DNA of 29,218 nucleotides. Source: a virus. The translations under genes and the position numbers were made by a program. Numbering within the stretch: the stretch's first letter is position 1; every line of letters starts with the position of its first letter. This document shows positions 10,501 through 25,588 of the stretch, one piece after another. The notes below the pieces were generated by a model. That model did not search any database, was not told the origin of the DNA, and saw only the letters and a list, made by a program, of their open reading frames with translations. The stretch lies in UHGV virus genome UHGV-0177389, one strand, 5' to 3'.

Positions 10501-10550
10501 ATACACTCCTGCAATAAAGGGGCCGAAGCCCCTTGTCTGATCCGCGAGGC

Positions 10551-10886: not shown

Positions 10887-10896
10887 CGATATCACC

Positions 10897-11334: not shown

Positions 11335-11349
11335 CTTCTTTCTCCATTA

Positions 11350-11369
11350 GTGGGTCTGTTACGACCCAC
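11350..11369 (-). other. stem-loop downstream of the capsid gene (GTGGGTC/GACCCAC), no U-tract
   Basis: 7-bp inverted repeat with 6-nt loop seen in sequence, 17 nt after the capsid stop; possible RNA stability or partial termination element. Confidence 0.3.
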
Positions 11370-11385
11370 AGGTTAATAACAGGCG

Positions 11386-12372: not shown

Positions 12373-12386
12373 TGTCATTTCCTCTC

Positions 12387-13082
12387 TTATTTGCCATAGA
12401 GCACTTCGGCCGCACTACGCTGGCCTTCATTACCACCGGTGACCATGCCATCTTCAGACATCGCCTTTCCGATTTTCACGAACGTTTTGACCAGATCAGG
12501 GTGATTACCCAGCCCGGTGGTGTTCAGATATTCTTTGAGTTCAGGTGTCCCGAACTGGTCAAGCGCACGCTGTGCGGCGCTAAGGTTAGAAATCAACTTG
12601 TCGCCACCGATTTCTTTGTCAGCTTTTACATCCGCAGCCCACTGCTCGGTTGTTTTCTGCCAGGCTTCTGCCTGGCGCTGCTGAACACCTGCCAGAATCT
12701 TCGGATAAGCATCAACCAGCTTTTGCGCTTGCTCGTTGGTCAGGTTAAGTTCTCGCGCCACAGGCTCGAATTCCTTCAACGCTTCTGTATCCAGCTCTAC
12801 GCCTTCGGCAGCCTGAAACTCGTACTTCTCAGGCGCACCCTCTGGTTTATTGCCGTCCTTTTTTTCATCCTGCTTATCGTTTTCAGGCTTTTTGTCATCA
12901 GCAGGTTTATCGCCATCAGCAACAGGTTGTGGCTTATCACCTTCCTGTTGTGATGGATCACCAACTGGAGCAGGGTTATCACCTGCAGGCGCTGACGGTT
13001 CTGACGCAGCCGGAGCTGCTCCACCATCGACTGGTTGCTCATTGCAAAGACGGCGATACAGCAAACGCTCAAATAAATTCAT
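12387..13082 (-). CDS. scaffolding protein
   Basis: ORF track 12387..13088 (GTG) trimmed to ATG at 13082 with AGGAG 5 nt upstream; acidic, Pro/Ala/Asp/Lys-rich N-terminal half; lies between portal and capsid genes. Confidence 0.55.
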   Translation of the reverse strand: MNLFERLLYRRLCNEQPVDGGAAPAASEPSAPAGDNPAPVGDPSQQEGDKPQPVADGDKPADDKKPENDKQDEKKDGNKPEGAPEKYEFQAAEGVELDTEALKEFEPVARELNLTNEQAQKLVDAYPKILAGVQQRQAEAWQKTTEQWAADVKADKEIGGDKLISNLSAAQRALDQFGTPELKEYLNTTGLGNHPDLVKTFVKIGKAMSEDGMVTGGNEGQRSAAEVLYGK

Positions 13083-13084
13083 GA

Positions 13085-13381
13085 TCACTCCTGTTCACTG
13101 GCCTCTTTGGCCATCTTCAAATACTGTTCAGGGCAATGCGCCATAACGCGCTGAAACAGTTCCAGCGCCAGATTGCGTTGCCCCTCATTAAATGCCATTG
13201 CCATAGCGTCCATCGGTGAGATAGCGGAAAACACACGGCCTTTCTCCAGCACCGACCAGACAACGCGACGCCCCTGTTCACTGCTCATGACAAAGCGAAT
13301 GTCATCAATTTCACGCTGCGCCATGTCACGTTGCTTACGGGCGTTTTCTTCTTTCAGTTGATCGTCTTCGTAATCTGTCAT
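13085..13381 (-). CDS. hypothetical protein (98 aa)
   Basis: ORF track; ATGA overlap with the portal stop. Confidence 0.45.
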   Translation of the reverse strand: MTDYEDDQLKEENARKQRDMAQREIDDIRFVMSSEQGRRVVWSVLEKGRVFSAISPMDAMAMAFNEGQRNLALELFQRVMAHCPEQYLKMAKEASEQE

Positions 13382-15057
13382 TGTGATTGCCCACCCTGAC
13401 CACTAACTGCATTCGCCATAGCTGACAAAACACTCGGATCCGAAGTTTTAGCTTCGCTTAGCGTCTTGGCACCCTGTGCCGCCGCCATTCCCATCGCCAT
13501 CATTTGTTGCTGCTGTTGCTGCTGTGCCCGTTGCTGGCGAGCCTGCTCAACCTGTTCCTGCGGAACAATGACGGTTGGAGACACTCCGGACATATCAGCG
13601 AATGCATCGATCGCCTGATCAACATTGAGTTTGTCGAGAGCTTCTGGTTTCGCTTGCGCAAGTTGACCAATGAAGTTGACCGTAGACGCCAGACTGGACA
13701 GGCCGATAGACTTCTGCGCCTGAGCCATGACGGAAATGTATTCGACCTTCAGGGGCATACCTTCCATCGCGTCAGGCGGTGGCGGCAGCATGTTTTTACG
13801 CACCATCATCGAGAAAGAGCGGTCAATGAGAGGATTAAGACATTCGTCGTTCAGACGCTCCAGAACCGGCCCCAACATCAGAAGTTTTTCTTCTTTCATT
13901 TCGATCACCGCTTCAACAGGCATCGAGCGGGTATTGATGTTCTGCAACATCATGAACAGATCGACAAAGTAGGCGCTGTTAATGATTTGACGGGTGTCCT
14001 GAATGTCTGCCACCAAATCTGCTGTACTGGGGTTAACCAGATAAGCAGGCCTGAAACCATCCTGACCAGTAATCTGATCGATATACGTGATGTCGCCAGG
14101 AAGAAGGGAGGCACGCTGATTCTTGAGGGAAGTCGGAGCAACCATCGGCGGATTGGTGGCTTTATCAATCAACTCCGACTTGCGCTTCTGGAGAAGCTGC
14201 AATGCCTTAACAGGTCCAAGCGCCAGCATACCCGGGCATGATGATCCATAAACATCTTCACCGTTAACTTCCCAGCGCGGAGCCATAATTGGAAACTCAT
14301 CGAATCCGGACTCACGCAACAACTTGTCGTTATCGCCACCAACCTCGTAATAAACCGATTTGAATGGCTTGTTCTTGCTATCCAGCTTCGATGTATCGCG
14401 GTCAATGTTCGGGTAAACCGAATGCATCACTTCAATCCACTTCTCGTAGGTGCCGCTTTCCCACATGCTTTTTACGGATTCGCTGACGTTATTTAGCCCG
14501 AACTCCTGAACAAGCTGACGAACAGTCATAGAGAACTTGCGAAAACAGGTGTCCACACTGCCACGAGGTGAGTTAGCCAGGTAGTAACTGCCTATCGGGA
14601 ATGGCATTGTGCGAATGATGTCCTCGTCATCCTCCAGCACTGCCATTGCACCAGTGCTGTATGTGCCGAGGCTTCCGTATAACTGCGGCAGCGACTGATA
14701 GAGATTCGACTTATTGAACATATCGTTCATACGGTTCTGCACCGCCTCAAGCCACAACTTAACAGGGCCATAATCCATCATTTCAGGATCTGGCGTAGCC
14801 AGGCGAAACCACGGACGCGCGGGGCTTGTGATGCCTGACATCATGCCGCTGGCGAGAGTGCGCGCCGCCATAGTCCCGGTCGAATCAATAATGCGTGTAT
14901 TGCGTCGATCGTTACGGTTGACCTCAGAAGTCAGAAAGCGGGAACCACGCGGGTTGATGTAATCACTCAACTCGCGCCAGTGCGGCTCGAACGACTGACG
15001 CTCGCTTTCAAGTTGTGCGAACTGTTTGTTCAATCGCTCTTTAGTTGTTTCCGCCAT
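13378..15057 (-). CDS. portal protein (559 aa)
   Basis: ORF track; GGAG RBS 8 nt upstream; size and position between terminase and scaffold/capsid; poly-Gln/Ala C-terminus. Confidence 0.75.
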   Translation of the reverse strand: MAETTKERLNKQFAQLESERQSFEPHWRELSDYINPRGSRFLTSEVNRNDRRNTRIIDSTGTMAARTLASGMMSGITSPARPWFRLATPDPEMMDYGPVKLWLEAVQNRMNDMFNKSNLYQSLPQLYGSLGTYSTGAMAVLEDDEDIIRTMPFPIGSYYLANSPRGSVDTCFRKFSMTVRQLVQEFGLNNVSESVKSMWESGTYEKWIEVMHSVYPNIDRDTSKLDSKNKPFKSVYYEVGGDNDKLLRESGFDEFPIMAPRWEVNGEDVYGSSCPGMLALGPVKALQLLQKRKSELIDKATNPPMVAPTSLKNQRASLLPGDITYIDQITGQDGFRPAYLVNPSTADLVADIQDTRQIINSAYFVDLFMMLQNINTRSMPVEAVIEMKEEKLLMLGPVLERLNDECLNPLIDRSFSMMVRKNMLPPPPDAMEGMPLKVEYISVMAQAQKSIGLSSLASTVNFIGQLAQAKPEALDKLNVDQAIDAFADMSGVSPTVIVPQEQVEQARQQRAQQQQQQQMMAMGMAAAQGAKTLSEAKTSDPSVLSAMANAVSGQGGQSQ

Positions 15058-15071
15058 TTCAATGACTCCGG

Positions 15072-15278
15072 TTACTGACCAAGCAGCGTTTTACCGCTGG
15101 TATTAGCGGTTGATGTGTCGCCCTGAGAACCGGTAAGCAGCGTAGAACTACGACCAGCAGCAGCGCGACGGCGACGAGTTTCTTCGTCGCGGGCATCAAC
15201 AACGGCGGCATCCTGCTCCTGTGGTGCTGCCTGAACTTCTGGTGTTGCAGGCACTGATGGTGAGCTACCCATGCACAT
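15072..15278 (-). CDS. small hypothetical protein (68 aa), low complexity
   Basis: ORF track; start context GGAGTCATTGATATG nearly identical to the portal start context GGAGTCATTGAAATG. Confidence 0.35.
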   Translation of the reverse strand: MCMGSSPSVPATPEVQAAPQEQDAAVVDARDEETRRRRAAAGRSSTLLTGSQGDTSTANTSGKTLLGQ

Positions 15279-15346
15279 ATCAATGACTCCGTACGCAATT
15301 AAATTATTACCAATTTAACCACATATGATTTATTTATCGTAGATGG

Positions 15347-15383
15347 TTGACATTTAATGCACGAATTATTACCCTTCAGGTAA
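15347..15383 (+). promoter_or_regulatory. TTGACA -35-like hexamer followed by a perfect TTACC-N5-GGTAA operator-type palindrome (15369-15383)
   Basis: Seen in sequence; the palindrome matches the immunity-region operators; strand of the promoter is uncertain. Confidence 0.35.
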
Positions 15384-15705
15384 GTAAATAGTTCATTCCG
15401 GTTATTAACCTGACTGGCTTGTCGTTAAATTGAACAGGTGGAGTGAGCTTTTATTTTGAGCAGTACGGCGTATGGCACATGCGCCGATAGCGGTCTGGAT
15501 ACGTTTAAGGGGCACCCTCCCTTGCTCGGGCAAACGAACCAGGTAGCCGGAATGTGCAAGTCGAGCGGTTTTATTCCGCGCACGGGGATTCACCATCCCG
15601 GCGATTCGGTGTGACGCCTCGGAAGAGACGAGGGTGCAACGATGAGAGCATTTATGGAGCCGCGACAAAGTGTGGCGCCTTAACAGGCTAAGTGCTCTCA
15701 GCGTT

Positions 15706-15782
15706 GTGGCATTAGCTCAGTTGGACAGAGCAACCGCCTTCTAAGCGGTTGGTCGCAGGTTCGAATCCTGCATGCCACGCCA
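15706..15782 (+). tRNA. tRNA-Arg (anticodon UCU)
   Basis: Manual cloverleaf: 7-bp acceptor stem GTGGCAT/ATGCCAC, D arm GCTC...GAGC, anticodon stem ACCGC/GCGGT with loop CTTCTAA (anticodon TCT), T arm GCAGG-TTCGAAT-CCTGC, encoded CCA. Confidence 0.9.
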
Positions 15783-15825
15783 GAATCACGCCTAAGGACC
15801 GTGATGCCAGAAGTTCCAGGGGCTT

Positions 15826-15867
15826 GGCGGTGATGGTTTCCCTTGAAGGACTATCACCGCCCTTTTT
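15826..15867 (+). terminator. intrinsic terminator candidate downstream of the tRNA
   Basis: 9-bp stem GGCGGTGAT/ATCACCGCC followed by TTTTT. Confidence 0.55.
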
Positions 15868-15945
15868 ACAGCAGGACGCCATTGCGATGACTTCATGCTG
15901 TAAACCAGTACAGCCACGGAAGGCATAACTCATTGCTTCCAGTTC

Positions 15946-15969
15946 GCCCGGTTCGCCGGGCATTTTTTT
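15946..15969 (+). terminator. intrinsic terminator candidate (GCCCGG-TTCG-CCGGGC plus T7 run)
   Basis: 6-bp GC stem with TTCG tetraloop followed by ATTTTTTT, ending about 16 nt before the ATG at 15986. Confidence 0.6.
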
Positions 15970-15985
15970 AAGGTGAGATTAGACT

Positions 15986-16357
15986 ATGAGTGACAAAGAC
16001 ATTGAATCTGAAATTCAGGCTAAAGGTTTAGCCGCGCCGCGCGTTACGCCAGACCATATCGAGAGCATTATTGCTCAGGAGGCATATTTCACAGCAGAAG
16101 ATGGTGTCTTTGGCGTAGCCATAAAAGCGAAACATACTGGCGGAGAGGTAAACTACCAGCCGCACGAATCACTTTCTCTGCTGACGTTCTGCGTTCTGGT
16201 GCTGCGCAACGGCTTCACCGTCACCGGAGAGAGCGCCTGTGCAAGCCCGGAAAACTTTGATGCGGAAATTGGTCGGAAGATTGCCCGGCAGAATGCTGTA
16301 AACAAAATCTGGATGCTTGAAGGTTACTTGCTGAAGCAGAAGTTAAGCGAGCAATAA
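15986..16357 (+). CDS. hypothetical protein (123 aa), opposite-strand moron inside the morphogenesis module
   Basis: ORF track; ATG preceded by AAGGTGAGA; followed by a palindrome and a terminator; function unknown. Confidence 0.55.
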   Translation: MSDKDIESEIQAKGLAAPRVTPDHIESIIAQEAYFTAEDGVFGVAIKAKHTGGEVNYQPHESLSLLTFCVLVLRNGFTVTGESACASPENFDAEIGRKIARQNAVNKIWMLEGYLLKQKLSEQ

Positions 16358-16361
16358 CACC

Positions 16362-16373
16362 GTGACATGTCAC
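16362..16373. repeat. perfect 12-bp palindrome GTGACATGTCAC, copy 1 (14-bp identity CGTGACATGTCACA with copy 2)
   Basis: Seen in sequence; lies between the 123-aa ORF stop and the terminase large subunit stop. Confidence 0.6.
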
Positions 16374-16377
16374 AAAC

Positions 16378-16404
16378 AGCCAGCCGATGAGCTGGCTTTG
16401 TTTT
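16378..16404 (+). terminator. intrinsic terminator candidate
   Basis: Stem AGCCAGC/GCTGGCT with 6-nt loop followed by TTGTTTT. Confidence 0.6.
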
Positions 16405-16447
16405 ATCCTCACCAGAGGATATCTCCGTCATTATCCCCGCTAACGGA

Positions 16448-17923
16448 TTAAGCATAGGGATCGTAATCTGTAATGGCCTTGCCTTGCTGGTTCTGCTGCC
16501 CGGGAATTCGCAGACGCTTAGACACAGGGAACGCAAACGTCAGCAGTAGCGCATCGCCTTTACCCGGCGAACGCCCAAGCCGCTCCTTGATATCTTCCTT
16601 CGGTTCGATAACGATTTTACCGTCCACTCGAACTTTGTACTCTGCCGCCGACAGGTCGTCTGCTGTTTCCTGGTCATCCAGCATCCCGCCCAGCCTCAGC
16701 CATGTCTTGCATGAGTTGAACATCTCCCCACGCTTGTTGAGCATCTGCGGGTCAGTAGACGCGCCACCGAACGGAACAAGTTGCCATGTACGACCCCAGC
16801 CGTCACCGATTGACTTCAGACCAGTTCCGTAACCGAAGTCGATGAACACTGCGTCAGCCTGGTACTGGTCTTCAAAGTCAGCGATACGCTTCGCCATTAT
16901 CAGATCGTCAGTGGTCTTGTTGCCAGTCCACAGCACCTTACTGTGCAGCCCCTGCCGCAGGTATATCACAGCGTCATCAACTCCGGAGTATGCCGGGTCA
17001 ACGCCGATTATCACCGGAGCATGTGCAACCTGCGCAGCGGTTACCACCCGTTTCATTGCCTCATCAGTAAGACCGGTAGGGATAAACTGCAATTCAGATG
17101 CATCAGGGAATATGCCGCGCACACGGATTTTAACGAAGTCGCTGTCTTCCCCGTAGTCATCAACCCATTTCTGCAACTGCTGTTTGTTAGTACCTTCCAC
17201 CGTCCGGCTGTCAATCTGCGCAGTTTTCCAGCGGTGTTTGTATTTGCGGAAACATTCGCGAAAACGCCCGGTATTACGTGTAGGGTTTCCGAACGCCACC
17301 CAGATAATCTCAGTGTCTTCGTCCGTAAGCGCACCCTCAGCAACTTCCCACACCAGATCCGCAATGTTCGACGCTTCATCGAATACCACGATGATGCGTT
17401 TGCGCTCGTTGTGTAGTCCGGCGAATGCCTCAGTGTTGTGCTCAGACCAGGGGATTGCGTCAGCTCGCCACCGCTTGTCGTGCCCAGGATCATTGCTGTA
17501 CATCGCAGTAGCGGTACAGGTAAACCAGTCTTTCGTGATAGCAAGGTTCGACCACTTGATAATTTCCGGCCAGGTCTTCGTTCGTAGCTGGTTGTCGGTG
17601 TTGGCGGTCACCACGACCTTACAATCCTCGCAAGTGGACATGCCCCAGTTGATCAGCATTGAGATGAATGCGGATTTACCAATACCGTGACCAGAAGCGC
17701 GTGCCAGCATAAGCGGCTGATAGCGCGTCTCTGGATTCTGCAGGTGATCACGTATCTCTCGGAACGCATCAGCCTGCCACTGACGTGGGCCGGTAGCATG
17801 TGCCAGTTCAGTCCCCTCTTCCCCCCACGGGAACGCATAGAGGGCATAGCCAAGCGGATCGTGAGTGAACCCTGCAATATCCTCGATCAACTGCTCTTCA
17901 GGAGATAACGCTGTATCTGTCAC
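16448..17923 (-). CDS. terminase large subunit
   Basis: ORF track (GTG start overlapping the terS stop); Walker A-like GHGIGKS and Walker B-like IIVVFDEAS; 491 aa, upstream of portal. Confidence 0.85.
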   Translation of the reverse strand: MTDTALSPEEQLIEDIAGFTHDPLGYALYAFPWGEEGTELAHATGPRQWQADAFREIRDHLQNPETRYQPLMLARASGHGIGKSAFISMLINWGMSTCEDCKVVVTANTDNQLRTKTWPEIIKWSNLAITKDWFTCTATAMYSNDPGHDKRWRADAIPWSEHNTEAFAGLHNERKRIIVVFDEASNIADLVWEVAEGALTDEDTEIIWVAFGNPTRNTGRFRECFRKYKHRWKTAQIDSRTVEGTNKQQLQKWVDDYGEDSDFVKIRVRGIFPDASELQFIPTGLTDEAMKRVVTAAQVAHAPVIIGVDPAYSGVDDAVIYLRQGLHSKVLWTGNKTTDDLIMAKRIADFEDQYQADAVFIDFGYGTGLKSIGDGWGRTWQLVPFGGASTDPQMLNKRGEMFNSCKTWLRLGGMLDDQETADDLSAAEYKVRVDGKIVIEPKEDIKERLGRSPGKGDALLLTFAFPVSKRLRIPGQQNQQGKAITDYDPYA

Positions 17924-18513
17924 TGATTACCATCCTGACGTTCTTTGAGTCGCTTCCTGGCTGCCGCTATGCGATCAGCAATTGTCACATTCACATTAAC
18001 ATCCAGGCGTTCTTTGAATGCATTGACGTCGACGTGCTTACCAATCAGTTCGAGGTTCTTCACCTTGTCAGGCCATTTAATTTTTTTGAGAATTGTCTCT
18101 ATCGAATCCTCGTTCATGTTCATGATGGTCGATGACAGATCAAAGCCACTAAGCGTAGTGCGCCAGATTTTCGGCCACTCGCGGATTGGCTTAAGGCTCC
18201 CATCGTCATTGAGGATATCAATCACGTCCATCTGGTCGATCTCCACCAGGCGCATGAGAACGTAATCGGCACTGACGCGCATTCGTTTGTTGCGCTCCTC
18301 CATCAACTCGGCAATCCGTTTTTGAATGCGTTCATCGCGCATCATGACACTGGCTTTAACTGCCGCTGTATTTGGGGAGAATCCTGCGTTAATCGCTGCC
18401 TGAGTCTGGTTTTCAGGCGTTTTGATGTATGACTGGCAATAAGCCTCCTGCATTGCGGTTAGTGGCTTAAATTGCGTTGATTTGCGTTTATAGGTTTTAG
18501 GTTCAGCAGGCAT
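17920..18513 (-). CDS. terminase small subunit
   Basis: ORF track 17920..18594 starts at TTG and its N-terminal extension covers a terminator hairpin; trimmed to ATG at 18513 (GGTGG 5 nt upstream; ATG at 18516 is the alternative); basic N-terminus; immediately upstream of terL. Confidence 0.6.
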   Translation of the reverse strand: MPAEPKTYKRKSTQFKPLTAMQEAYCQSYIKTPENQTQAAINAGFSPNTAAVKASVMMRDERIQKRIAELMEERNKRMRVSADYVLMRLVEIDQMDVIDILNDDGSLKPIREWPKIWRTTLSGFDLSSTIMNMNEDSIETILKKIKWPDKVKNLELIGKHVDVNAFKERLDVNVNVTIADRIAAARKRLKERQDGNQ

Positions 18514-18557
18514 CATAACCACCGTGGTAATAGTTACCGTTGTGGTAATAGTACCAT

Positions 18558-18585
18558 GCAAAATAAAGCCGCCATAGTTGGCGGC
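18558..18585 (-). terminator. intrinsic terminator candidate immediately upstream of terS
   Basis: 7-bp stem GCCGCCA/TGGCGGC with 4-nt loop, followed on the minus strand by TTTATTTT. Confidence 0.55.
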
Positions 18586-18626
18586 AGTATTCAAAACCCA
18601 TCAAATTCATCATGCATAATCTACTC

Positions 18627-18638
18627 GTGACATGTCAC
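18627..18638. repeat. perfect 12-bp palindrome GTGACATGTCAC, copy 2
   Basis: Seen in sequence; overlaps the stop of the 115-aa ORF, about 115 nt upstream of the terS start. Confidence 0.6.
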
Positions 18639-18982
18639 ACTATTAATTTCGTTTCATGCCAGCCTTTAGTCACCCAGCATTGCGAGTCACCATTACACGG
18701 GCATGAATTAACGGGAACTCTCTCGCCGCACTTACCGCAAAGTTTTCTGCTGATCGATTTTATACGCCCGCGCACACGTGCATCATCCTGGCGGATCAGC
18801 AGCGCGATGTACTCGGCCATTTCATAGGGATCGCGACCAGGGCGCCGGGCGGCGCAGTTCCGCGCCAGCATTTCCTGCTCCTGCTTATCCAGCACCAGTT
18901 CAATTTTGCGCTCACCGGCGGCGGACTGCCGAGCGCGCTGCGCGGCTTTGCGTTCTGCGGGGGATTTAGCCACGAATCGCAC
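18635..18982 (-). CDS. hypothetical Arg/Ala-rich protein (115 aa) with Cys-rich C-terminus
   Basis: ORF track (GTG start; start uncertain); C-terminal CGKCG...CPCNGDSQC suggests a zinc ribbon; last ORF before terS. Confidence 0.35.
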   Translation of the reverse strand: MRFVAKSPAERKAAQRARQSAAGERKIELVLDKQEQEMLARNCAARRPGRDPYEMAEYIALLIRQDDARVRGRIKSISRKLCGKCGERVPVNSCPCNGDSQCWVTKGWHETKLIV

Positions 18983-19088
18983 TCCACGCCAGATTGATTA
19001 ATGACTCCCAGGTAATATAAACCCGGATACCAGCAACCAGGCCGAAACCAATCACCATGGCATAAAGCAGAGCGTTGCACTTGTTCAT
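18966..19088 (-). CDS. small hydrophobic protein (40 aa), putative membrane peptide
   Basis: Manual translation MNKCNALLYAMVIGFGLVAGIRVYITWESLINLAWSAIRG; ATG overlaps the upstream stop (ATGA) with GGAGGTGA 7 nt upstream; below the ORF-track size cut-off. Confidence 0.4.
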   Translation of the reverse strand: MNKCNALLYAMVIGFGLVAGIRVYITWESLINLAWSAIRG

Positions 19089-19855
19089 CACTTCACCTCC
19101 TGCGGCGGTTCTGGTAGCGGCATCCAGTGGGTTACTTTCGATGCCGGTTCTTCCCCATCGTCAGTAACTGCCCACCATTTGTTTCTCGACCAATCGTAAT
19201 ACCCTTCGAAGGTATCGCACTCAGTCCAGCCGTAAGACTTACCCCAACACCAAACATACTGTTTATCGTTCGGCATTCGCTCACTACAGCTTATCCAACC
19301 ATCCGGAGTTGCCGGAGTTGGTCCATCGAATTCGGGCATGTCAGGACCTTTTCTGATAGCTTTAGCCAGCTCCAGCGGGTCATCGTAAAGCCAGTCGCCA
19401 GTTTGTGGGTGATTTGCTTCTGCAAGCTGCGCAGCCCATTCAAGACCATCTTTTTGACCTTGGAGATAATCAAGCGGCAACTCTTCATGATTACTTGCAG
19501 GTTCGGCACTATGAAGCATGGCAGCGCGGCAGGCGTTCCAGCCTCTTACCTCTGCAATAGCGGCAACCGCATCAACCGCGTACATGCTAAGAGGATTAGG
19601 AATTGGTTTTTCTTCCGGTACTACTGGCGCTGGAGGGGTGGCGTAGAGTGGAACTCCTCCCCCTCCACCAGAAAATTCATTGCGAGCGTTATACTCACGA
19701 CCATCTGCGTCATCACGCATCCACGCCACCGGCTCTGCTTCCAGCGATGCCAGAGCAATTTCATAAGCACGGCGCTCAATATTGTCTCGCACGTCCAGGC
19801 TGCCGATTCGCTCTTTGATTTCTTTAATCAGTTCTTTGTCGGTAAAAGTGGTCAT
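19088..19855 (-). CDS. DUF551-type prophage protein (255 aa)
   Basis: ORF track; Trp-rich C-terminal region (WISCSERMPNDKQYVWCWGK...WMPLPEPP) recalled as typical of DUF551; GGAGAG RBS. Confidence 0.6.
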   Translation of the reverse strand: MTTFTDKELIKEIKERIGSLDVRDNIERRAYEIALASLEAEPVAWMRDDADGREYNARNEFSGGGGGVPLYATPPAPVVPEEKPIPNPLSMYAVDAVAAIAEVRGWNACRAAMLHSAEPASNHEELPLDYLQGQKDGLEWAAQLAEANHPQTGDWLYDDPLELAKAIRKGPDMPEFDGPTPATPDGWISCSERMPNDKQYVWCWGKSYGWTECDTFEGYYDWSRNKWWAVTDDGEEPASKVTHWMPLPEPPQEVK

Positions 19856-19856
19856 G

Positions 19857-20675
19857 TCACTCTCCTTTGATGCGAATGCCAGCGTCAGACATCATATGCA
19901 GATACTCAACTGCATCCTGAACCCATTGACCGCCAATCCCGTAATAGCGATGCGTAATGATGTCGATAGTTACTAACGGGTCTTGTTCGATTAACTTCCG
20001 CAGAAACTCTTCCAGGTCACCAGTGCAGTGCTTGATGACAGGAGTTTTCCCAGGATGGCGAACAACAAGAAACTGATTTCCGACTTCACGGACTTCGTTG
20101 CTTTTCAGTTCTGCAATGCGCTTCTCTGAGGCTTCCAGCTTCTCTCGCATATCGTCAACGTACTCGACCAGAGAACCGCCAGCAGGAATTTCGCACTCCT
20201 CGACCAGTTGGAAGTAGATATCAGCTGCGGCCCGTGTGTTGCTATGCCTAGCGTCGCCCATCTCACCTTCACGAAGAGCATCGCGTTCGGCGGTAAGATT
20301 GGCTATTTTGCTGTCTTTGCCTTCCAGCTCAACGCGCAGCTTCCCTACCGTTAGCGCAATATCCTCGTTCTCCTGGTCGCGGCGTTTGATGTATTGCTGG
20401 TTTCTTTCCCGTTCATCCAGTAATGCCAAGACGGTAGCCGGATTAGCTGCGGCGATGAATTCAGCATTGGCCTGCTGTTCCATTTGGAAATCTTCATCGA
20501 AACCGCTTTCAGGATGCGCTCCTTCAATTCTGCAAATGGGAAGATATCCAACAACGTCACGATGAATTAGCGCATCATCACAATCAAATCGGCTCTCTCC
20601 ATATTCGAGCGACCATACACCACACGTTGCTTTTTCTGCCTTGGCACGCAGTGCCTGATAGTCAATCTTGCTCAT
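19857..20675 (-). CDS. Ea22/ead-like prophage protein (272 aa), probable
   Basis: ORF track; N-terminus MSKIDYQALRAKAEKAT recalled as Ea22-like; central coiled-coil-like region. Confidence 0.5.
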   Translation of the reverse strand: MSKIDYQALRAKAEKATCGVWSLEYGESRFDCDDALIHRDVVGYLPICRIEGAHPESGFDEDFQMEQQANAEFIAAANPATVLALLDERERNQQYIKRRDQENEDIALTVGKLRVELEGKDSKIANLTAERDALREGEMGDARHSNTRAAADIYFQLVEECEIPAGGSLVEYVDDMREKLEASEKRIAELKSNEVREVGNQFLVVRHPGKTPVIKHCTGDLEEFLRKLIEQDPLVTIDIITHRYYGIGGQWVQDAVEYLHMMSDAGIRIKGE

Positions 20676-20676
20676 G

Positions 20677-20976
20677 TCACATCACCCTGAATCCGTTGCA
20701 TTTACGTAAAAAATCGCAGATATAGCCCTTCATTTTTTCATGCCAATCCCGATCATTCCCATTGCACCAACCATCAGGTGGAGTCCAGTTTTCTATCAGA
20801 GCAGCCATTTTCTTTGCTTTCGCCGGAGTAGCTGTTGCGGTATCGCAGTAATGACGAGTGTCAACAAACTTATCCATGCCATCGATATCAAGTACGCAAA
20901 ACCATGTGTGATTCGGCATTTCAACAGATGGTATTTGTTGCCCACGTCGACGTTTATCAATAAGACATACAGTCAT
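20677..20976 (-). CDS. hypothetical protein (99 aa)
   Basis: ORF track; AAGGTGG RBS; ATGA overlap with the upstream gene. Confidence 0.45.
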   Translation of the reverse strand: MTVCLIDKRRRGQQIPSVEMPNHTWFCVLDIDGMDKFVDTRHYCDTATATPAKAKKMAALIENWTPPDGWCNGNDRDWHEKMKGYICDFLRKCNGFRVM

Positions 20977-21518
20977 GGTTCCACCTTCTCTATTTGCTTA
21001 AGACCGTCTCTCACTGCATTAAGTACGCGTTCCAGATACTGGTATTTCGGGTTTGGTATCGTTGGCCAGTTGGCATACCACGGCTCATCACCAAAGAGAT
21101 TCAGTAGTTTGTTACCGACGCCGAAACAGCAGCAGCTTTCTTTTACGTCATCGGCGTTTTCCGCCTCGTACCACATTTCGCGAGCCAGTACGGCGTCGAT
21201 TTCTCTCTCTCTTCGTAACTTTATGATTTCTGACTTCACGAAAAGCAGATTTGCATCGTTGTCATCGTCGACCGTGCTTCGCAGTTGAGGGTCGAAATTG
21301 TCGATTAGATAGTCGTTGCTGACTCGCTTAATGAACGTCTGCACATCATCACCGCCCATAGCAAACCAAGCCGCAGTCCACGCTTTTCCGTAGCAGGTGA
21401 TGGTGATTCTTCCCTTTCCAGGTTCATAGTTTTCAATCATCACTCGAACCGGATCTAGTCTCTCTGCACCGGTTATAACGAATGACAACACATCAATCTT
21501 TTCAACCGTTACACTCAC
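20973..21518 (-). CDS. hypothetical protein (181 aa)
   Basis: ORF track 20973..21551 trimmed to GTG at 21518, which overlaps the upstream stop with GGAGG upstream; acidic, contains CCC. Confidence 0.45.
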   Translation of the reverse strand: MSVTVEKIDVLSFVITGAERLDPVRVMIENYEPGKGRITITCYGKAWTAAWFAMGGDDVQTFIKRVSNDYLIDNFDPQLRSTVDDDNDANLLFVKSEIIKLRREREIDAVLAREMWYEAENADDVKESCCCFGVGNKLLNLFGDEPWYANWPTIPNPKYQYLERVLNAVRDGLKQIEKVEP

Positions 21519-21994
21519 TGGTTGCCTCCTTTGCGAAGCTGTTCCGCACAATGCAGCAGGGCGTCCGTCGCATATTTAAGCCTCACTAGCTCACCATCAT
21601 CCATTCCCGCGAGATTCGCGTGTTTAACGAACGCCGAGCAAAGGTCATTAAACGCCTGCGCACGTACTTCAGCCAGGAAAGCATCGGTGGCTGGAGTTTC
21701 GATATCGTTAATTTCAGGAAGAATCTCTTCCCATGTAGCGATATCGCCATTCAAATGCCATCCGGCAATTCCACTGGAGTTATCCGCAACACTCCGAACG
21801 GCTTCAATAGTTTCATGCATTGCCGCACTCTCCGCCGCCAGCGCATTAGCACGCACCAGTTGCACTTCCAGTTGCGTTGCCAAATCGCTGATCAGCTTTG
21901 CCACACTGCGCATATCAACGGCACCACATTCTGCTTTCAGTTCCGAAGCCATCTCATGCCCGGCGGCAACTAACCCTTTGATATTACTTTCCAT
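21515..21994 (-). CDS. hypothetical protein (159 aa), possibly Ea22/ead-like
   Basis: ORF track; GAGGG RBS; segment TDAFLAEVRAQ recalled from Ea22-like proteins. Confidence 0.45.
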   Translation of the reverse strand: MESNIKGLVAAGHEMASELKAECGAVDMRSVAKLISDLATQLEVQLVRANALAAESAAMHETIEAVRSVADNSSGIAGWHLNGDIATWEEILPEINDIETPATDAFLAEVRAQAFNDLCSAFVKHANLAGMDDGELVRLKYATDALLHCAEQLRKGGNQ

Positions 21995-22055
21995 CTTTAC
22001 CCTCGCTTATCCACATAACTTATTGATTACATTGATAACTAAATAGATCGTCGAT

Positions 22056-22403
22056 TCAGAACTCTTCGATGTTCCAGCCACCACCTGCTTTCTTTGGTTT
22101 AACCGTTACCCCGATGATTCGGAACGGATACTGATCTGCGGCGACTTTGGTTTTCACTCTGGCGTCATCGGTCCAGAATCCCCCTTTCACTTCGTGCAGC
22201 TCCATCTCGCCGGTGGCGAGCATCACAGCGAAATCGGGCGTATAGAACGTGTTATTAGCTAACCGCAGCTTGATACCCTCGAATCGATACCAGGCGATTT
22301 CCCCTGCACGTTTACGCAGCTCAAGGTGCTGGCAATACGCAGATTCTGTTTTGTTCATCTGGCCTGTTTTGAGTCGACCAAGAGCCTGTATCTGTTTTCT
22401 CAT
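22056..22403 (-). CDS. putative PD-(D/E)xK nuclease-fold protein (115 aa, DUF1064-like)
   Basis: ORF track; AAGGGG RBS; candidate motif TPDF...ELHEVKGG; first gene after the internal operator-flanked promoter. Confidence 0.45.
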   Translation of the reverse strand: MRKQIQALGRLKTGQMNKTESAYCQHLELRKRAGEIAWYRFEGIKLRLANNTFYTPDFAVMLATGEMELHEVKGGFWTDDARVKTKVAADQYPFRIIGVTVKPKKAGGGWNIEEF

Positions 22404-22406
22404 GAT

Positions 22407-22483
22407 TTACCCCTTAGGTAATTAAAAACCACATAAGACATGAAATCAATAGAGATTAGAACATTTTATTACCTTCCAGGTAA
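22407..22483 (-). promoter_or_regulatory. internal promoter flanked by two TTACC-N5-GGTAA operators
   Basis: Minus strand reads operator (22469-22483), 19 nt, -35 TTGATT (22444-22449), 17 nt, -10 TTTAAT (22421-22426), operator (22407-22421), AAGGGG RBS, ATG at 22403. Confidence 0.5.
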
Positions 22484-22496
22484 TCATATAGACGTA

Positions 22497-22515
22497 AAAA
22501 AATGCGCTATCGCGC
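22497..22515 (-). terminator. weak intrinsic terminator candidate after the P-like gene
   Basis: 4-bp GC stem with 4-nt loop followed on the minus strand by ATTTTTTT; stem is short. Confidence 0.3.
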
Positions 22516-22520
22516 TGGTA

Positions 22521-23306
22521 TTACTTGATAAATCCTGCCGCCTTTCCCCGCCTGTATTCCTCCATCAGCCACTGCGCCGGTGTTATTCCCCCAAGGGTGG
22601 CGGCGTTAGGCATGCACCCGAAACTTCGCCCTGGTGGATGGTAAACGTCTCTCCCTGTGTCCGGAGGCGTACTCATGGGCTCTGGCTTTGCCTGTATGCT
22701 GATCACCGGATCGGGTATCTGCTGTCCGGAAGCCACCTTTTTCGCCCAATCATCGAGCAGCCTGCGTGCGTGTTTCTCAACCTCAATCTCGCTAAGCTGG
22801 CGCTGATACATTGCACGGCGGGTATCACATACGACCCAGTACATAACCGGATGTCGCCACGGGAATCTTTCGGGACCACCAGGATATAAACTTTTTTCCT
22901 TGCTGTACCGGTGAAACTCCGCCATCACATCGTCAATGGTGACGCCAAGAACCATCTTGCTGTCTTTGCACCACTTGATAAATTGCCCTGGAGACGGCCA
23001 GAACGGAGATTCACTGGCGCGGGCGTGGCGCATACCAGCAGAAACCTGTTCACGGGTTCGGATCCCCCCTTCGGCAAACGCAGCAATCCACTGCTGTTTT
23101 GCAGCAACTTCCTGCTCTGGCGTCTTCAGGTTGGTTACCACTGCCGCCGGAAACAGTTGTTTCAGCTGTTTAAAAAGGGCATCAACAAGCCTCTCTGCTG
23201 ACATGTTCACCACATTGTCATTGTTGACGTACTGATGCTCATAACCTGACATGCGAGAAAGGGCTTCTCCGTCACGGTTTTGTATCGCGGTAAAAACGTT
23301 GTTCAC
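22521..23306 (-). CDS. replication protein P-like (helicase loader)
   Basis: ORF track 22521..23321; GTG at 23306 preferred because GGAGGA lies 6 nt upstream and it overlaps the O-like stop; core W(I/V)xAFxExGI...GMRxAR...PFxPSPGQFxxWC matches recalled lambda P. Confidence 0.7.
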   Translation of the reverse strand: MNNVFTAIQNRDGEALSRMSGYEHQYVNNDNVVNMSAERLVDALFKQLKQLFPAAVVTNLKTPEQEVAAKQQWIAAFAEGGIRTREQVSAGMRHARASESPFWPSPGQFIKWCKDSKMVLGVTIDDVMAEFHRYSKEKSLYPGGPERFPWRHPVMYWVVCDTRRAMYQRQLSEIEVEKHARRLLDDWAKKVASGQQIPDPVISIQAKPEPMSTPPDTGRDVYHPPGRSFGCMPNAATLGGITPAQWLMEEYRRGKAAGFIK

Positions 23307-24118
23307 AAGAAATCCTCCCATGCTTCAGGGCTGTTCCAGTGCGGAACGTTGTTATCAGGTAATGTTGATTGCTTCTGTCTGCTAATCTGCAGCCGCCTTG
23401 CCAGCTTCTGCTCCCACTGTGCCTGATGGTATGCCTTACCCTCAGCCATCCAGTAAATTCTGAACTCTGCAAGTTCCTGTGCCGTTGGCAGACTGTCCAG
23501 GTAGATCCCCTGCAATGAGCTTTTCCGAAGAAAGTCATCTGATGGCTGCCATTGTTCATGCATGACAAATTTGCCTAATTGCCCTGGCCCACCAGGAGGA
23601 ACAAAGTTATTCATCACGGCGTTGTTTGCTCCGGGGTCATGAGGCACAGAATCCCCGCTTTTTGTCCTGCTCTCCCTCTCTTGGTTAAATGACTGGTTAT
23701 ATGACTGGTTCTGGATCCCGTTTTTGGGATCATTCAACATCCCGTTTTTGGGATCATTCAACATCCCGTTTTTGGGTATATTCCCGTTTTCGGTAACATT
23801 ACCGTTTTCGGGTTCATTGCCCCCCTCCCGGTTGCCTTTAATGTTCCCGTTTTTGGTTATATTAAGAGAGAAAACCCGCACTCTTTTTGTCGCTCCCTTT
23901 CTCTCTCCGGTATCTGAAATAAGCCCCATTTTCATGAGCGATATAAGCCCGGCCTGCACGGTTTTTTTATTCAGGCAAGTGTCTTTAACGAGGCGTTCTA
24001 TGCTGGGGTAGCAGAGGTTATATTCATCGGCTCTGTCAGCCATCGAGAGCAGTATGAGCTTTAATGATGAGCTACCTGGATCTGTCTCCCAGGCCCAATC
24101 TGTTGCATGTCTGCTCAT
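23303..24118 (-). CDS. replication initiator O-like protein
   Basis: ORF track; GGAG RBS; directly upstream of and overlapping the P-like gene; iteron array inside the coding sequence encodes an Asn/Gly-rich repetitive linker, as in lambda O. Confidence 0.65.
   Translation of the reverse strand: MSRHATDWAWETDPGSSSLKLILLSMADRADEYNLCYPSIERLVKDTCLNKKTVQAGLISLMKMGLISDTGERKGATKRVRVFSLNITKNGNIKGNREGGNEPENGNVTENGNIPKNGMLNDPKNGMLNDPKNGIQNQSYNQSFNQERESRTKSGDSVPHDPGANNAVMNNFVPPGGPGQLGKFVMHEQWQPSDDFLRKSSLQGIYLDSLPTAQELAEFRIYWMAEGKAYHQAQWEQKLARRLQISRQKQSTLPDNNVPHWNSPEAWEDFL
23712..23862. repeat. iteron array, putative origin of replication inside the O-like gene
   Basis: At least six direct repeats with core CCCGTTTT(T)GG; the first three are 24-bp units starting at 23717, 23741 and 23765. 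Confidence 0.65.
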
Positions 24119-24133
24119 GATTAATCTCCGCTA

Positions 24134-24334
24134 TCAGCTTGAATGTTGTGGGGAGGAATTAATCATGATCTGCTTAATCTCTGCCCTGATACGACGGTTT
24201 GATTCCATGGTGCACTCAACACAGTGTCCGTTGTAAACCCAGCGTTCACTGTCATGTCCGTGCTTACATGTTTTTCCGGTGTAGTAGCGTTTAAGTCCGC
24301 GCTTTGCGGCATCAATACGTGTAATGATTTCCAT
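24134..24334 (-). CDS. small putative zinc-binding protein (66 aa) at the cII position
   Basis: ORF track 24134..24397 (TTG start) trimmed to ATG at 24334; motif CKHGH...CVEC; stop overlaps region just upstream of the O-like start. Confidence 0.4.
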   Translation of the reverse strand: MEIITRIDAAKRGLKRYYTGKTCKHGHDSERWVYNGHCVECTMESNRRIRAEIKQIMINSSPQHSS

Positions 24335-24414
24335 GGTAAGCCCTGTTATTAGTATTGGGATTACGGTCATTTTGTGCTGACACAAAAAAAATATCAACCA
24401 TATTTGGTTTTTTA

Positions 24415-24429
24415 TTACCTTTGAGGTAC
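24415..24429. promoter_or_regulatory. imperfect operator-like site TTACC-TTTGA-GGTAC with downstream -35-like TTGATA
   Basis: Seen in sequence; on the minus strand reads site, 18 nt, TTGATA, 17 nt, CAAAAT (weak -10). Confidence 0.3.
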
Positions 24430-24440
24430 GAATAGATATG

Positions 24441-24462
24441 AAAAGACCGCCGGGTGGCGGTC
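24441..24462 (-). terminator. intrinsic terminator candidate after the cro-like gene (tR1-like position)
   Basis: 7-bp stem GACCGCC/GGCGGTC followed on the minus strand by TTTTCATATCTATT, about 23 nt after the cro-like stop. Confidence 0.5.
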
Positions 24463-24484
24463 TACAGAGGGTTGTAGCTGGATA

Positions 24485-24715
24485 TCATGAGTAGAAGAAG
24501 TATGCCAGTTCTGCTTTTGAGCGCAGCCATTGTCTTGTTTTACAGGCTTTAAAAAGCCCATTCATCAATACTTTACCTGGCATTTTGCGCTTACCTGTTA
24601 AGTGAGTCTGGATATAGTGACTCGTCGTTCCGGCTTCCTGTGCGAAGGCTTCACGCTCATCCGGAGTAAGTGCAAGCCAGTGCTTTTTGAAATCGAAATG
24701 TCCGTTATCGCTCAT
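24485..24715 (-). CDS. Cro-like HTH DNA-binding protein (76 aa)
   Basis: ORF track; divergent from the repressor gene across an operator-containing intergenic region; HTH-like segment AGTTSHYIQTHLTGKR. Confidence 0.55.
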   Translation of the reverse strand: MSDNGHFDFKKHWLALTPDEREAFAQEAGTTSHYIQTHLTGKRKMPGKVLMNGLFKACKTRQWLRSKAELAYFFYS

Positions 24716-24751
24716 AGCTATTGCCTGATATTTATTTCAGATAATAAATAT

Positions 24752-24814
24752 TCACCCATAAGGTAACAAAAATCAAGGATAGTTACCCATGAGGTGCATT
24801 TACCTGTTGGGTAA
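24752..24814. promoter_or_regulatory. right operator region: three TTACC-N5-GGTAA-type sites plus cro-like promoter
   Basis: Sites at 24752-24766 (TCACC-CATAA-GGTAA), 24783-24797 (TTACC-CATGA-GGTGC) and 24800-24814 (perfect); minus-strand -35 TTGATT (24771-24776) and -10 GAATAT (24748-24753), 17-nt spacer. Confidence 0.55.
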
Positions 24815-24869
24815 TATTGCTTTAAATTGAATCATCTACTGATTCATATATGAGGCGATTTTCCAGAAA

Positions 24870-25454
24870 ATGAAAAGTATCCAGGACGTCCGCAGGCAAA
24901 ATCTCAACGACTTGATCGACCGTGAATTCAATGGTGTTCAGACGCGGATGGCTGAAAAACTTGGAACTCAGGCAAATCTGGTAAACCGCTGGGCTCTTGG
25001 TAAGAAGGTTATCGGCGATCAGGTTGCGCGAAAAATTGAAGCTGCCGCCAATAAACCCCGTAACTGGCTTGATATCGATCGCTCGCTTTCTCAGGAAGGT
25101 TTTCAGCCTGTCGGCCCAAGCGACATTGGCCAGCTGGCGGCTCACAACCTGGAACGCTGGATGAGCGAAAGCCGCGACCTTTCAACACAGGGAAAACTTC
25201 ACCGCGCATCCGGCGTAGCCCAGGTGACAATCAGCCGCCTGTTAAACAATGAGGTCAGCGTTTCCATTTCCACCCTGGAGAATGTTGCATCCGCATTCGG
25301 GCGTCACGGCTATGAATTACTGATTCACCCGCACGACCCTGCGACCATCAACTATGATCGCTCGCGCTACGCATTGTTACCCGAAACCGAGAAAGCAAAG
25401 ATCGAAAGTTACATTGAATTTGTCATCAACCAGAACGAAAAAAACAAACAATAA
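24870..25454 (+). CDS. prophage repressor (194 aa) with two predicted HTH segments and no recognisable S24 peptidase domain
   Basis: ORF track; HTH-like TRMAEKLGTQANLVNRW and ASGVAQVTISRLLNNE; divergent from the cro-like gene; operators on both sides. Confidence 0.6.
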   Translation: MKSIQDVRRQNLNDLIDREFNGVQTRMAEKLGTQANLVNRWALGKKVIGDQVARKIEAAANKPRNWLDIDRSLSQEGFQPVGPSDIGQLAAHNLERWMSESRDLSTQGKLHRASGVAQVTISRLLNNEVSVSISTLENVASAFGRHGYELLIHPHDPATINYDRSRYALLPETEKAKIESYIEFVINQNEKNKQ

Positions 25455-25475
25455 AACCATATTTTTCAGTAAGTA

Positions 25476-25499
25476 AGCCGCCTTATGGCGGCTTTTTTA
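25476..25499 (+). terminator. intrinsic terminator after the repressor gene
   Basis: 7-bp stem AGCCGCC/GGCGGCT with 4-nt loop followed by TTTTTTA, 22 nt after the stop. Confidence 0.65.
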
Positions 25500-25511
25500 T
25501 TGCCTATTCGA

Positions 25512-25588
25512 TTACCTAACGGGTAATTTTTTTAACTCATATCTATTGACATCAAACCATATACGCATAATTATTACCTCAACGGTAA
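25512..25588 (+). promoter_or_regulatory. left operator region: two perfect TTACC-N5-GGTAA sites flanking a promoter
   Basis: Sites at 25512-25526 and 25574-25588; -35 TTGACA at 25546-25551; -10-like AATTAT about 17 nt downstream; precedes the plus-strand early operon. Confidence 0.55.

Follow-up and report, generated by a model that had tools for sequence, protein, structure and literature searches.

Does a single repressor act directly on promoters scattered over a whole prophage? The 29,218-nt virus genome UHGV-0177389 (the window, meaning this whole stretch of DNA) raises the question, as a 15-bp palindrome, TTACC-N5-GGTAA, recurs in it on both sides of the repressor gene rep and well beyond the immunity region. 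A sequence-only reading had listed about nine promoter-associated sites and had proposed that one repressor controls several dispersed promoters, which is not the standard lambda arrangement. Our analysis indicated that the palindromes are very probably operators of the prophage's own repressor, Rep, heading nearly every transcription unit, which Rep would silence directly; induction would be expected to go through an antirepressor, Ant. The 4.4-kb immunity region was 97-98% identical to those of Escherichia phages phiV10, PAS61, phiv142-3 and ZX5 (genus Uetakevirus, epsilon15-like podophages), and the window is a phiV10/epsilon15-like (Uetakevirus) prophage, with prophage DNA throughout.

This control logic applies to a very common E. 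coli prophage, including the phiV10-type phages of O157:H7; 562 of 5426 complete E. coli genomes carried the immunity region. A repressor placed directly on every transcription unit, and removed by an antirepressor rather than cleaved, would be a design unlike that of lambda, and it is useful for predicting induction, engineering reporter phages (for which phiV10 has been used) and annotating prophages. The finding mainly carries known biology over to the present prophage, and the repressor family is structurally characterised.

Recurrence and location of the palindrome

Seven exact copies of TTACC-N5-GGTAA were found in the window (15369, 18534, 22407, 22469, 24800, 25512 and 25574), compared with 0.00 expected from 100 dinucleotide-preserving shuffles of the window. 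Three further copies carried one mismatch (18516, 24415 and 24752), giving 10 sites at no more than one mismatch compared with 0.48 expected and a largest shuffle value of 3. The site at 24783 (TTACCCATGAGGTGC) has two mismatches and appears to be a degenerate but real member of the operator family, since exact operators stand at the aligned position in epsilon15, SPC32H and BUCT711. All nine previously listed sites were thus recovered in place (24415 and 24752 with one mismatch, 24783 with two), but the total is 11; the adjacent pair at 18516 and 18534 had been missed, although it lies inside the range covered by the sequence-only reading.

All 11 sites were non-coding. The non-coding share of the window was 7.2% by the first gene list, built from open reading frames (ORFs) and the phiV10 annotation, and 6.1% after an ORF at 35-349 was added. 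The remaining two-mismatch matches (n = 16) were all coding and occurred at 0.58 per kb, compared with 0.66 per kb in host DNA. In 50 kb of an unrelated E. coli chromosome there was 1 exact match and 4 at no more than one mismatch, all within genes, and 15 kb of host DNA beside a sister prophage held 0 exact matches; host DNA therefore showed the motif at background level and only in genes. A count table of 46 exact sites from five genomes, each entered in both orientations (92 entries), extended the consensus to W-A-TTACC-WWWWW-GGTAA-T-W, with the central base A or T in 88 of 92 counts and the flanking A/T in 66 of 92.

Chance or base composition might account for the motif, or it might be recognised by a restriction-modification or methylation system: the phage has genes for DNA methyltransferases, and Type I systems use bipartite recognition sequences. 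None of the 100 shuffles reached the observed count, the sites were exclusively intergenic, and their positions and spacings were conserved across seven relatives; restriction targets, moreover, are as a rule avoided rather than concentrated at promoters. Taken together, the controls from shuffles, host DNA, location and conservation effectively excluded this explanation.

Conservation of sites and spacings among relatives

The relatives compared were phiV10, epsilon15, SPC32H, Klebsiella phage BUCT711, Enterobacter phage Tyrion, a metagenomic E. coli prophage (L090) and a Serratia prophage (L091). Sites at no more than one mismatch numbered 13-18 in each of the five complete genomes and 10-11 in the 20-kb L090 and L091 loci, where shuffles predicted 0.2-0.7. 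They occurred at common places, namely at terS, at gp3, at the operator clusters on either side of rep (OL and OR) and at a locus after the replication genes (the post-replication locus). Further sites of the complete relatives lay 5' of int and in two divergent regions, ant/tail-fibre and oac/lysis, and the phiV10 genome had five intergenic regions with sites beyond those of the window (Table 1).

When OL, OR, terS, gp3 and the post-replication locus were aligned among these relatives, whose intergenic DNA is strongly diverged, every operator half-site and the promoter-hexamer cores fell in invariant columns. The 5-bp operator centre did not, with 4 or all 5 positions varying from site to site. 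Operators at OL and at the post-replication locus were spaced 62 bp apart in the aligned phages, the exception being OL of BUCT711 (63 bp), and the post-replication pair was found in all six aligned sequences. Adjacent pairs at OR and terS were 17-18 bp apart. Of 80 IMG/VR loci whose Rep is identical, most retained both 62-bp pairs, and the post-replication pair stayed 62 bp apart while its distance to rep changed with the replication module. The operator core was identical across Escherichia, Salmonella, Klebsiella, Enterobacter and Serratia prophages, with Reps 42-78% identical; such an invariant core beside diverged Reps would imply either broad cross-immunity or a specificity lying outside the half-sites, for example in the central bases, the spacing or the Rep-Ant pairing.

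The epsilon15 GenBank/RefSeq record (AY150271/NC_004775) carries seven "protein_bind / repressor / lysogeny" features, all of which coincide with the palindrome (Table 1), and those at terS, gp3, OL and the post-replication locus align with sites of the window. The record marks 7 of the 15 epsilon15 sites found at no more than one mismatch and 0 of the 3 OR sites; the phiV10 record, with a repressor identical to Rep, has no annotated operators. A literature search for the consensus string gave no match. The epsilon15 annotation reportedly goes back to Kropinski et al. in 2007, who are said to have given a 17-bp hyphenated inverted-repeat consensus of roughly ATTACCWDWWNGGTAAT. For epsilon15, which belongs to the same genus, public records already contain the motif, show it scattered and assign it to the repressor. 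What our analysis adds is incremental: a full site list for a phiV10-type prophage (including OR and terS), the strict 62-bp pairing, the tripartite OR, the cross-genus invariance of the core and a second palindrome. Epsilon15 resembles the window in the core, in the scattered layout (5' of terS and gp3, next to the repressor gene and past the replication genes), in the 62-bp and 18-bp spacings and in a homologous repressor, but its Rep is only ~42% identical, its OL includes a third site at a distance of 76 bp, and it is without the site after the cro-like terminator.

Probable operators and promoters at the six loci

The sites flank rep in the manner of lambda OR and OL, as had been proposed, with a tripartite OR (24752, 24783 and 24800) and a bipartite OL (25512 and 25574). 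Six more sites lie beyond these clusters at four other loci, heading four further transcription units in the window (Table 1). At OL, the -35 (TTGAC) and -10 (ATTAT) elements of the PL-like promoter, a strong one of sigma-70 type, were invariant in five phages, and the epsilon15 orthologues of both operators are annotated as repressor-binding (32554-32570 and 32616-32632). The post-replication promoter repeats this arrangement, its operator/-35/-10 geometry being that of the PL-like promoter; TTGA (-35) and AAT (-10) were invariant in six phages, and the DUF1064 gene begins 4 bases past the 22407 operator.

The tripartite OR between the divergent rep and cro-like genes was conserved in five phages and has spacings of 17 bp (O1-O2) and 31 bp (O2-O3). 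One half-site of O3 was off consensus in all five aligned phages, which suggested that a graded affinity is under selection. The site at 24415 has orthologues in phiV10, Tyrion and BUCT711 and is absent in epsilon15 and SPC32H.

The 18-bp pair at terS was conserved in phiV10, Tyrion, epsilon15 and L090, and no credible sigma-70 promoter was found in the ~50 bp from the hairpin to the ATG. The description promoter-associated therefore does not fit this pair, which stands between a terminator and a start codon. The exact site before gp3 had orthologues in phiV10, epsilon15 (annotated repressor-binding, 2931-2947), SPC32H, Tyrion and BUCT711. An intrinsic terminator or terminator-like hairpin precedes four of the six loci, so that the genome reads as short units, each headed by an operator; the hairpin at the post-replication locus is weak and outside the terminator scan list, and it matches an annotated phiV10 terminator.

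Table 1. Coordinates of operators, promoters, terminators, genes and the second palindrome in the window and in related phages
Genome	Feature	Position	Strand	Remarks
Window	OL proximal operator, exact	25574..25588		begins at last -10 base, covers predicted start; 62 bp from distal operator
Window	PL-like promoter TTGACA-17-AATTAT, 10/12	25546..25574	plus	serves recE/recT-side early operon
Window	OL distal operator, exact	25512..25526		centre about -62 from predicted start, beyond A/T-rich stretch
Window	terminator after rep	25475..25494	plus	
Window	rep, master repressor gene	24870-25454	plus	
Window	recE/recT-side early operon	3' of rep	plus	
Window	OR O1, exact	24800..24814		closest to rep start; same offset from rep in 80/80 IMG/VR loci
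Window	OR O2, two mismatches	24783..24797		17 bp from O1
Window	OR O3, one mismatch	24752..24766		overlaps -35/spacer of leftward cro-like promoter-like site TTGTTA-17-TATTAT
Window	cro-like small helix-turn-helix repressor gene, epsilon15 gp39 homologue	24485-24715	minus	phrog_35 "transcriptional repressor", E 5.6e-13; divergent from rep
Window	terminator after cro-like gene	24444..24463	minus	
Window	operator directly after cro-like terminator, one mismatch	24415..24429		~25 bp 5' of -35 of TTGATA-17-CAAAAT promoter-like site
Window	small early genes and replication genes	18635-24337		
Window	DnaT-like replication-initiation gene	23303-24118	minus	
Window	post-replication promoter-distal operator, exact	22469..22483		62 bp centre-to-centre from 22407; epsilon15 orthologue annotated repressor-binding (35906-35922)
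Window	sigma-70-like promoter TTGATT-17-TTTAAT	22421..22449	minus	bracketed by operators 22407 and 22469
Window	promoter-proximal operator of post-replication unit (DUF1064 gene onward), exact	22407..22421		first base is last -10 base
Window	gp49-like regulator gene	18635-18982		
Window	terminator-like hairpin between gp49-like gene and terS operators	18568..18585	minus	conserved in phiV10 and Tyrion
Window	terS operator, exact	18534..18548		just 3' of hairpin, 18 bp from 18516 site; epsilon15 orthologue annotated repressor-binding (12-27)
Window	terS operator, one mismatch	18516..18530		abuts/overlaps likely terS ATG (18516-18514, minus) and Shine-Dalgarno
Window	terL and terS	16448-18516		
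Window	single operator 5' of gp3/portal (head) operon, exact	15369..15383		operon read on minus strand; ~90 bp from gp3 start (gp3 15278-15072)
Window	virion and head genes	361 to 15278	minus	
Window	second palindrome	24396-24409; 15317-15330		
phiV10	second palindrome	20539, 20918, 24736, 33132		
Tyrion	second palindrome	21435, 26452, 34215, 35385		
SPC32H	second palindrome	3228, 24826, 34799		
phiV10	extra regions with operator sites	two in Bro-N/ant-homologue/tail-fibre stretch; one before tail-fibre gene; one in oac/lysis divergent region; one 5' of int		
Epsilon15	annotated repressor sites	12-27, 2931-2947, 19895-19911, 32479-32494, 32554-32570, 32616-32632, 35906-35922		each coincides with TTACC-N5-GGTAA

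The layout could also be read without regulation. On that reading, the sites beyond OR and OL would be conserved sequences marking module boundaries, where they aid recombination between mosaic relatives, or auxiliary "sinks" for Rep that leave the neighbouring promoters unaffected; they do lie at junctions of exchangeable modules, one 62-bp pair remains intact beside a replication module of varying length in the 80 loci, and the gp3, 24415 and terS sites are poorly placed for occlusion. The post-replication pair, however, copies the geometry of the PL-like promoter, which is clearly placed for regulation, and 15-bp sites are too short for homologous exchange. When the repressor of ZX5, identical to Rep, was overexpressed, free phage was abolished and holin and endolysin mRNA fell by 99.97-99.99% (PMC9782041), a roughly 10,000-fold loss of lysis-gene mRNA that also speaks against idle sites, although it may be indirect; that study did not include operator mapping. 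We consider a non-regulatory role very unlikely overall; it is less improbable for the poorly placed sites and does not fit the post-replication pair.

Two side observations concern the terS and gp3 loci. In the phiV10 record, and in the annotation of an ST648 prophage by the Prokaryotic Genome Annotation Pipeline (PGAP), terS starts at a TTG 78 nt upstream (window 18516-18594; phiV10 41-118), which would put the hairpin and both operators within the terS coding sequence; in epsilon15, SPC32H and Tyrion, terS starts at the ATG right after the operators. The shorter start (18516) is probably correct and the phiV10 terS start mis-annotated. Upstream of gp3, a ~45-nt block at 15285-15335 (minus strand), ATATGTGGTTAAATTGGTAATAATTTAA...CGTA.GGAG, was near-invariant in six phages despite diverged flanking intergenic DNA, and may represent either a late promoter plus leader or some different conserved element. 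A "GGTAAT" just 5' of gp3 and of the tail-fibre gene was considered as a proximal half-operator for Rep and rejected, because its distance from the full site is 62 bp at gp3 but 50 bp at the phiV10 tail-fibre promoter, and because it is more simply part of a -10-like TAATAA/TAATAG.

Rep and its probable operators

Rep, a protein of 194 residues, matches the phiV10 and ZX5 repressors at 100% identity and has 42% identity with the epsilon15 and SPC32H repressors. It matched the crystal entries of SPC32H Rep, 5d50 (E 4e-42, residues 1-190) and 5d4z. A Pfam search of Rep matched only helix-turn-helix (HTH) families, HTH_3 at 106-147 and, below threshold, a YdaS/Cro-type HTH at 21-61, and gave no Peptidase_S24 domain. 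SPC32H Rep consists of N-terminal DNA-binding, middle dimerisation and C-terminal tetramerisation/Ant-binding domains, and its F187 and F190 form the tetramer interface (PMC9986798); the equivalents of these residues in Rep are kept aromatic, as Y and F. With domain roles assigned through PMC9986798, Rep shares the same three-part architecture of an N-terminal HTH, a middle HTH_3-like dimerisation domain and a C-terminal tetramerisation/Ant-binding segment. The SPC32H tetramer binds palindromic DNA with DNA-binding pairs drawn from different dimers (PMC9638917), holds its two dimerisation-domain pairs ~100 Å apart (PMC9986798), and is taken apart by the tetrameric antirepressor Ant (PMC9638917; PMC9986798).

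The N36-L-V-N-R-W41 block, the predicted recognition helix, was invariant across five aligned Reps, corresponding to the invariant operator half-site. A protein search with Rep returned 86 homologues, down to 52% identity, in which only the helix variants NLVSRW, NLINRW, NLISRW and NVISRW occurred; an IMG/VR scan with the Rep alignment returned only 100%-identical Reps. At two loci with variant helices, L090 and the Serratia prophage L091, the TTACC-N5-GGTAA core and the layout were unchanged. Homology, position and prior annotation gave good support to the view that Rep would bind each palindrome through a pair of N-terminal HTH domains. The earlier proposal that one repressor controls the dispersed promoters thus gained support from the conserved site positions and spacings and from the epsilon15 annotation.

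The most distant hit, the cI of Pseudomonas phage PseuP_224, was set aside as uninformative; only its N-terminal domain is common to Rep, with a different helix and a long unrelated C-terminal part. In PseuP_224 the repeat finder gave a single inverted repeat, with 12-nt arms at 2749-2776, just 3' of the cI gene.

A second palindrome and the possibility of another regulator

A second palindrome, AACCATATATGGTT, with a consensus of about A(A/T)CCATAT(A/G)TGGTT, was observed at fixed offsets from single Rep operators. In five phages the offset at the gp3 promoter was +52.5 bp; it was +43.5 in the oac/lysis region, ~+41 for the sites of the ant region and the tail fibre, and +19.5 where the palindrome follows the cro-like terminator. 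At no more than one mismatch, AACCA-N4-TGGTT occurred 6 times in the window (0.93 expected) and 9 times in phiV10 (1.24 expected). The palindrome stands 7 nt 5' of a -10-like hexamer at the lysis and tail-fibre promoters and ~7-8 nt at gp3, which is the usual position of a -35 element, and it is unannotated in the records examined. It may be the site of a second regulator, such as the cro-like, gp49-like or PerC-like protein.

A different regulator, such as the cro-like (24485-24715) or gp49-like (18635-18982) protein, might be the main binder of TTACC-N5-GGTAA, with Rep recognising something else or only the OR and OL sites. The cro-like protein belongs to an HTH "transcriptional repressor" family and is encoded divergently from rep, lambda-type Cro and CI share operators, making joint use plausible, and the link between Rep and the motif is sequence-based here, not physical. 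Even so, the recognition-helix block of Rep and the half-sites are both invariant across genera, the epsilon15 record gives the sites to the repressor, and the two-operator geometry suits a tetramer with two DNA-binding pairs; the AACCATATATGGTT-like palindrome, at late-type promoters and beside the cro-like terminator, is a more natural target for a second regulator. A main binder other than Rep was judged improbable on balance. That the cro-like protein shares the OR sites with Rep is quite plausible, while exclusive use of the sites by a non-Rep protein is unlikely because of the invariant Rep helix and the epsilon15 annotation.

Proposed mechanism of silencing and induction

If Rep is the ligand, the arrangement of the sites suggests how it could act. 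The half-site centres are 10 bp apart, one helical turn, within a site of (A)TTACC-N5-GGTAA(T), 15-17 bp long with an A/T-rich, non-conserved centre, and a Rep tetramer with two DNA-binding pairs could engage two operators simultaneously. At both bracketed promoters, the PL-like and the post-replication one, one operator covers the -10/+1 region, with the second 62 bp upstream. A distance of 62 bp amounts to ~5.9 turns, so that both operators lie on the same face of the DNA, and there was moderate support for the view that one tetramer clamps each bracketed promoter. The tetramer would occlude -10/+1 and enclose the promoter within a small loop or wrap; the DNA would have to bend, as the dimerisation-domain pairs of the tetramer are ~100 Å apart, compared with ~210 Å for a straight 62 bp. 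The three graded sites between rep and the cro-like gene could work as an OR-like switch.

In the lysogen, Rep would then silence the early, replication, packaging and head operons directly and, in a complete phage, also the tail-fibre, lysis, int and ant-region units; this direct silencing would stand in for a lambda-style N/Q cascade. More speculatively, the terS pair, which lies in the leader just past the terminator and covers the ribosome-binding site, may be a roadblock to transcription, and the single upstream sites (gp3 and 24415) could bridge to other operators or block upstream promoter contacts.

Induction would proceed through a small, LexA-controlled antirepressor, Ant, that pulls Rep off the DNA without cleavage. 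This route is to be expected, as Rep is without an S24 domain and phiV10p24 is an Ant homologue with a LexA-type box. The phiV10p24 protein, annotated as hypothetical, is 88% identical to SPC32H Ant, and the box, CTGTATAAATACACAG (CTGT-N8-ACAG), lies just upstream of its gene at phiV10 20822-20837. The window is without an ant gene, its left end being occupied by an unrelated AT-rich ORF. Matches to CTGT-N8-ACAG occur in the window at 11356-11371 and 15898-15913 (0.28 expected; 3 of 100 shuffles reached 2), and neither is at a definable promoter. Two observations may be added on these boxes: a phiV10 Rep operator (20877) lies ~40 bp from the LexA-type box, in the ant/tail-fibre divergent region, and the 15898 match of the window sits in a variable region between a tRNA-Arg gene and the gp66-like gene.

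Several points weigh against direct silencing of this kind. The gp3 and 24415 sites stand ~60-80 bp 5' of the likely starts and the terS pair has no recognisable promoter, so that simple occlusion is not expected at these loci. Looping over 62 bp carries a high energy cost, and the spacing could simply reflect promoter layout, with one site at +1 and one just 5' of an A/T-rich UP-like stretch. At OR, the strongest site is beside rep and the weakest over the cro-like promoter, the reverse of lambda, and the rep promoter was not placed with confidence, its sole candidate -10 being the conserved TTTAAATT at ~24821-24828. Every homologue examined keeps the operator core, leaving no half-site change to pair with a helix change, and the repressor-site features of epsilon15 are annotations that may be predictions. 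We nevertheless hold operators of Rep, acting directly, to be by far the best account of the palindromes. The complete version of the scheme, in which the 62-bp pairs are one-tetramer clamps, the single operators are bridged in trans, there is no antitermination cascade, the second palindrome marks late-type promoters of a separate regulator, and immunity specificity lies outside the half-sites or cross-immunity is broad, is tentative and, taken as a whole, rather doubtful.

Comparison with known systems

The SPC32H Rep/Ant lytic switch is reportedly the subject of work by Kim and Ryu in 2013 and Kim et al. in 2016. With SPC32H the window shares a homologous Rep of the same three-part architecture, which likewise has no autocleavage domain, and operators with an identical core at matching loci, and the Ant homologue with its LexA box is found in phiV10; unlike SPC32H, it has no ant, and its Rep is 42% identical.

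Lambda is matched in two respects: three graded operators separate divergent repressor and cro-like genes, and the far flank of the repressor gene carries a second operator cluster, placed at an early promoter of leftward type. In contrast to lambda, Rep has no S24/LexA-like cleavage domain, OL consists of two sites 62 bp apart that bracket the promoter (three adjacent sites in lambda), and the best OR site adjoins the repressor gene. Operators are also present at replication, packaging and head units and, in phiV10, at tail-fibre, lysis, int and ant-region genes. That the arrangement departs from lambda, as the sequence-only reading had held, was therefore borne out by the missing S24 autocleavage domain and by operators outside the immunity region, yet it had already been recorded for epsilon15-like phages.

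Scattered operators are known from other phages. The C1 repressor of P1 has many of them, in the form of asymmetric 17-bp sites bound by a monomer. P1 resembles the present system in placing many unlinked promoters under a single repressor and in an antirepressor-based immunity circuit; the sites here, however, are perfect or near-perfect palindromes, the family repressor is tetrameric, and there is no sequence relationship. The stoperators bound by gp71 of mycobacteriophage L5 are asymmetric and orientation-dependent, number about 30 and lie within operons. As in L5, many sites are spread through the prophage, and the terS pair in its post-terminator leader could act as a roadblock likewise; unlike stoperators, the sites here are palindromic, number about 15 per genome, and are intergenic at operon heads, with only the terS pair in a probable leader.

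Gene layout and other features of the prophage

The gene order of the window is that of phiV10 in reverse (Table 1). In one E. coli genome carrying the same immunity region, the prophage adjoins guaA, which is the reported site of ZX5 (PMC9782041). At the left edge, past the last virion gene, an AT-rich ORF of 104 codons (35-349, plus strand) had no Pfam match; it stands where phiV10 has small genes and a Bro-N protein, and it is probably a moron.

A tRNA-Arg gene with anticodon TCT was found at 15706-15782 (plus strand) by both Rfam (73 bits) and ARAGORN, and Rfam and tRNA scans of the window gave nothing else. It is overlapped by a minus-strand ORF at 15712-15963 (phiV10 hypothetical protein p04), which may not be a real gene. 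A tRNA-Arg is also annotated in the corresponding region of SPC32H and of the ST648 prophage. In this ST648 sister prophage (L007), an extra exact operator at 10878-10892 lies just 5' of an inserted plus-strand gene (10925-11488) beside the tRNA-Arg, so that newly acquired cargo genes, too, can fall under an operator.

Inside the DnaT-like gene, at 23715-23867, there are six copies of an 18-24-nt repeat, (A/T)TCCCGTTTT(T/C)GG..., of which the first two 24-mers are identical. By analogy with the O gene of lambda, the array looks like origin iterons lying within an initiator gene.

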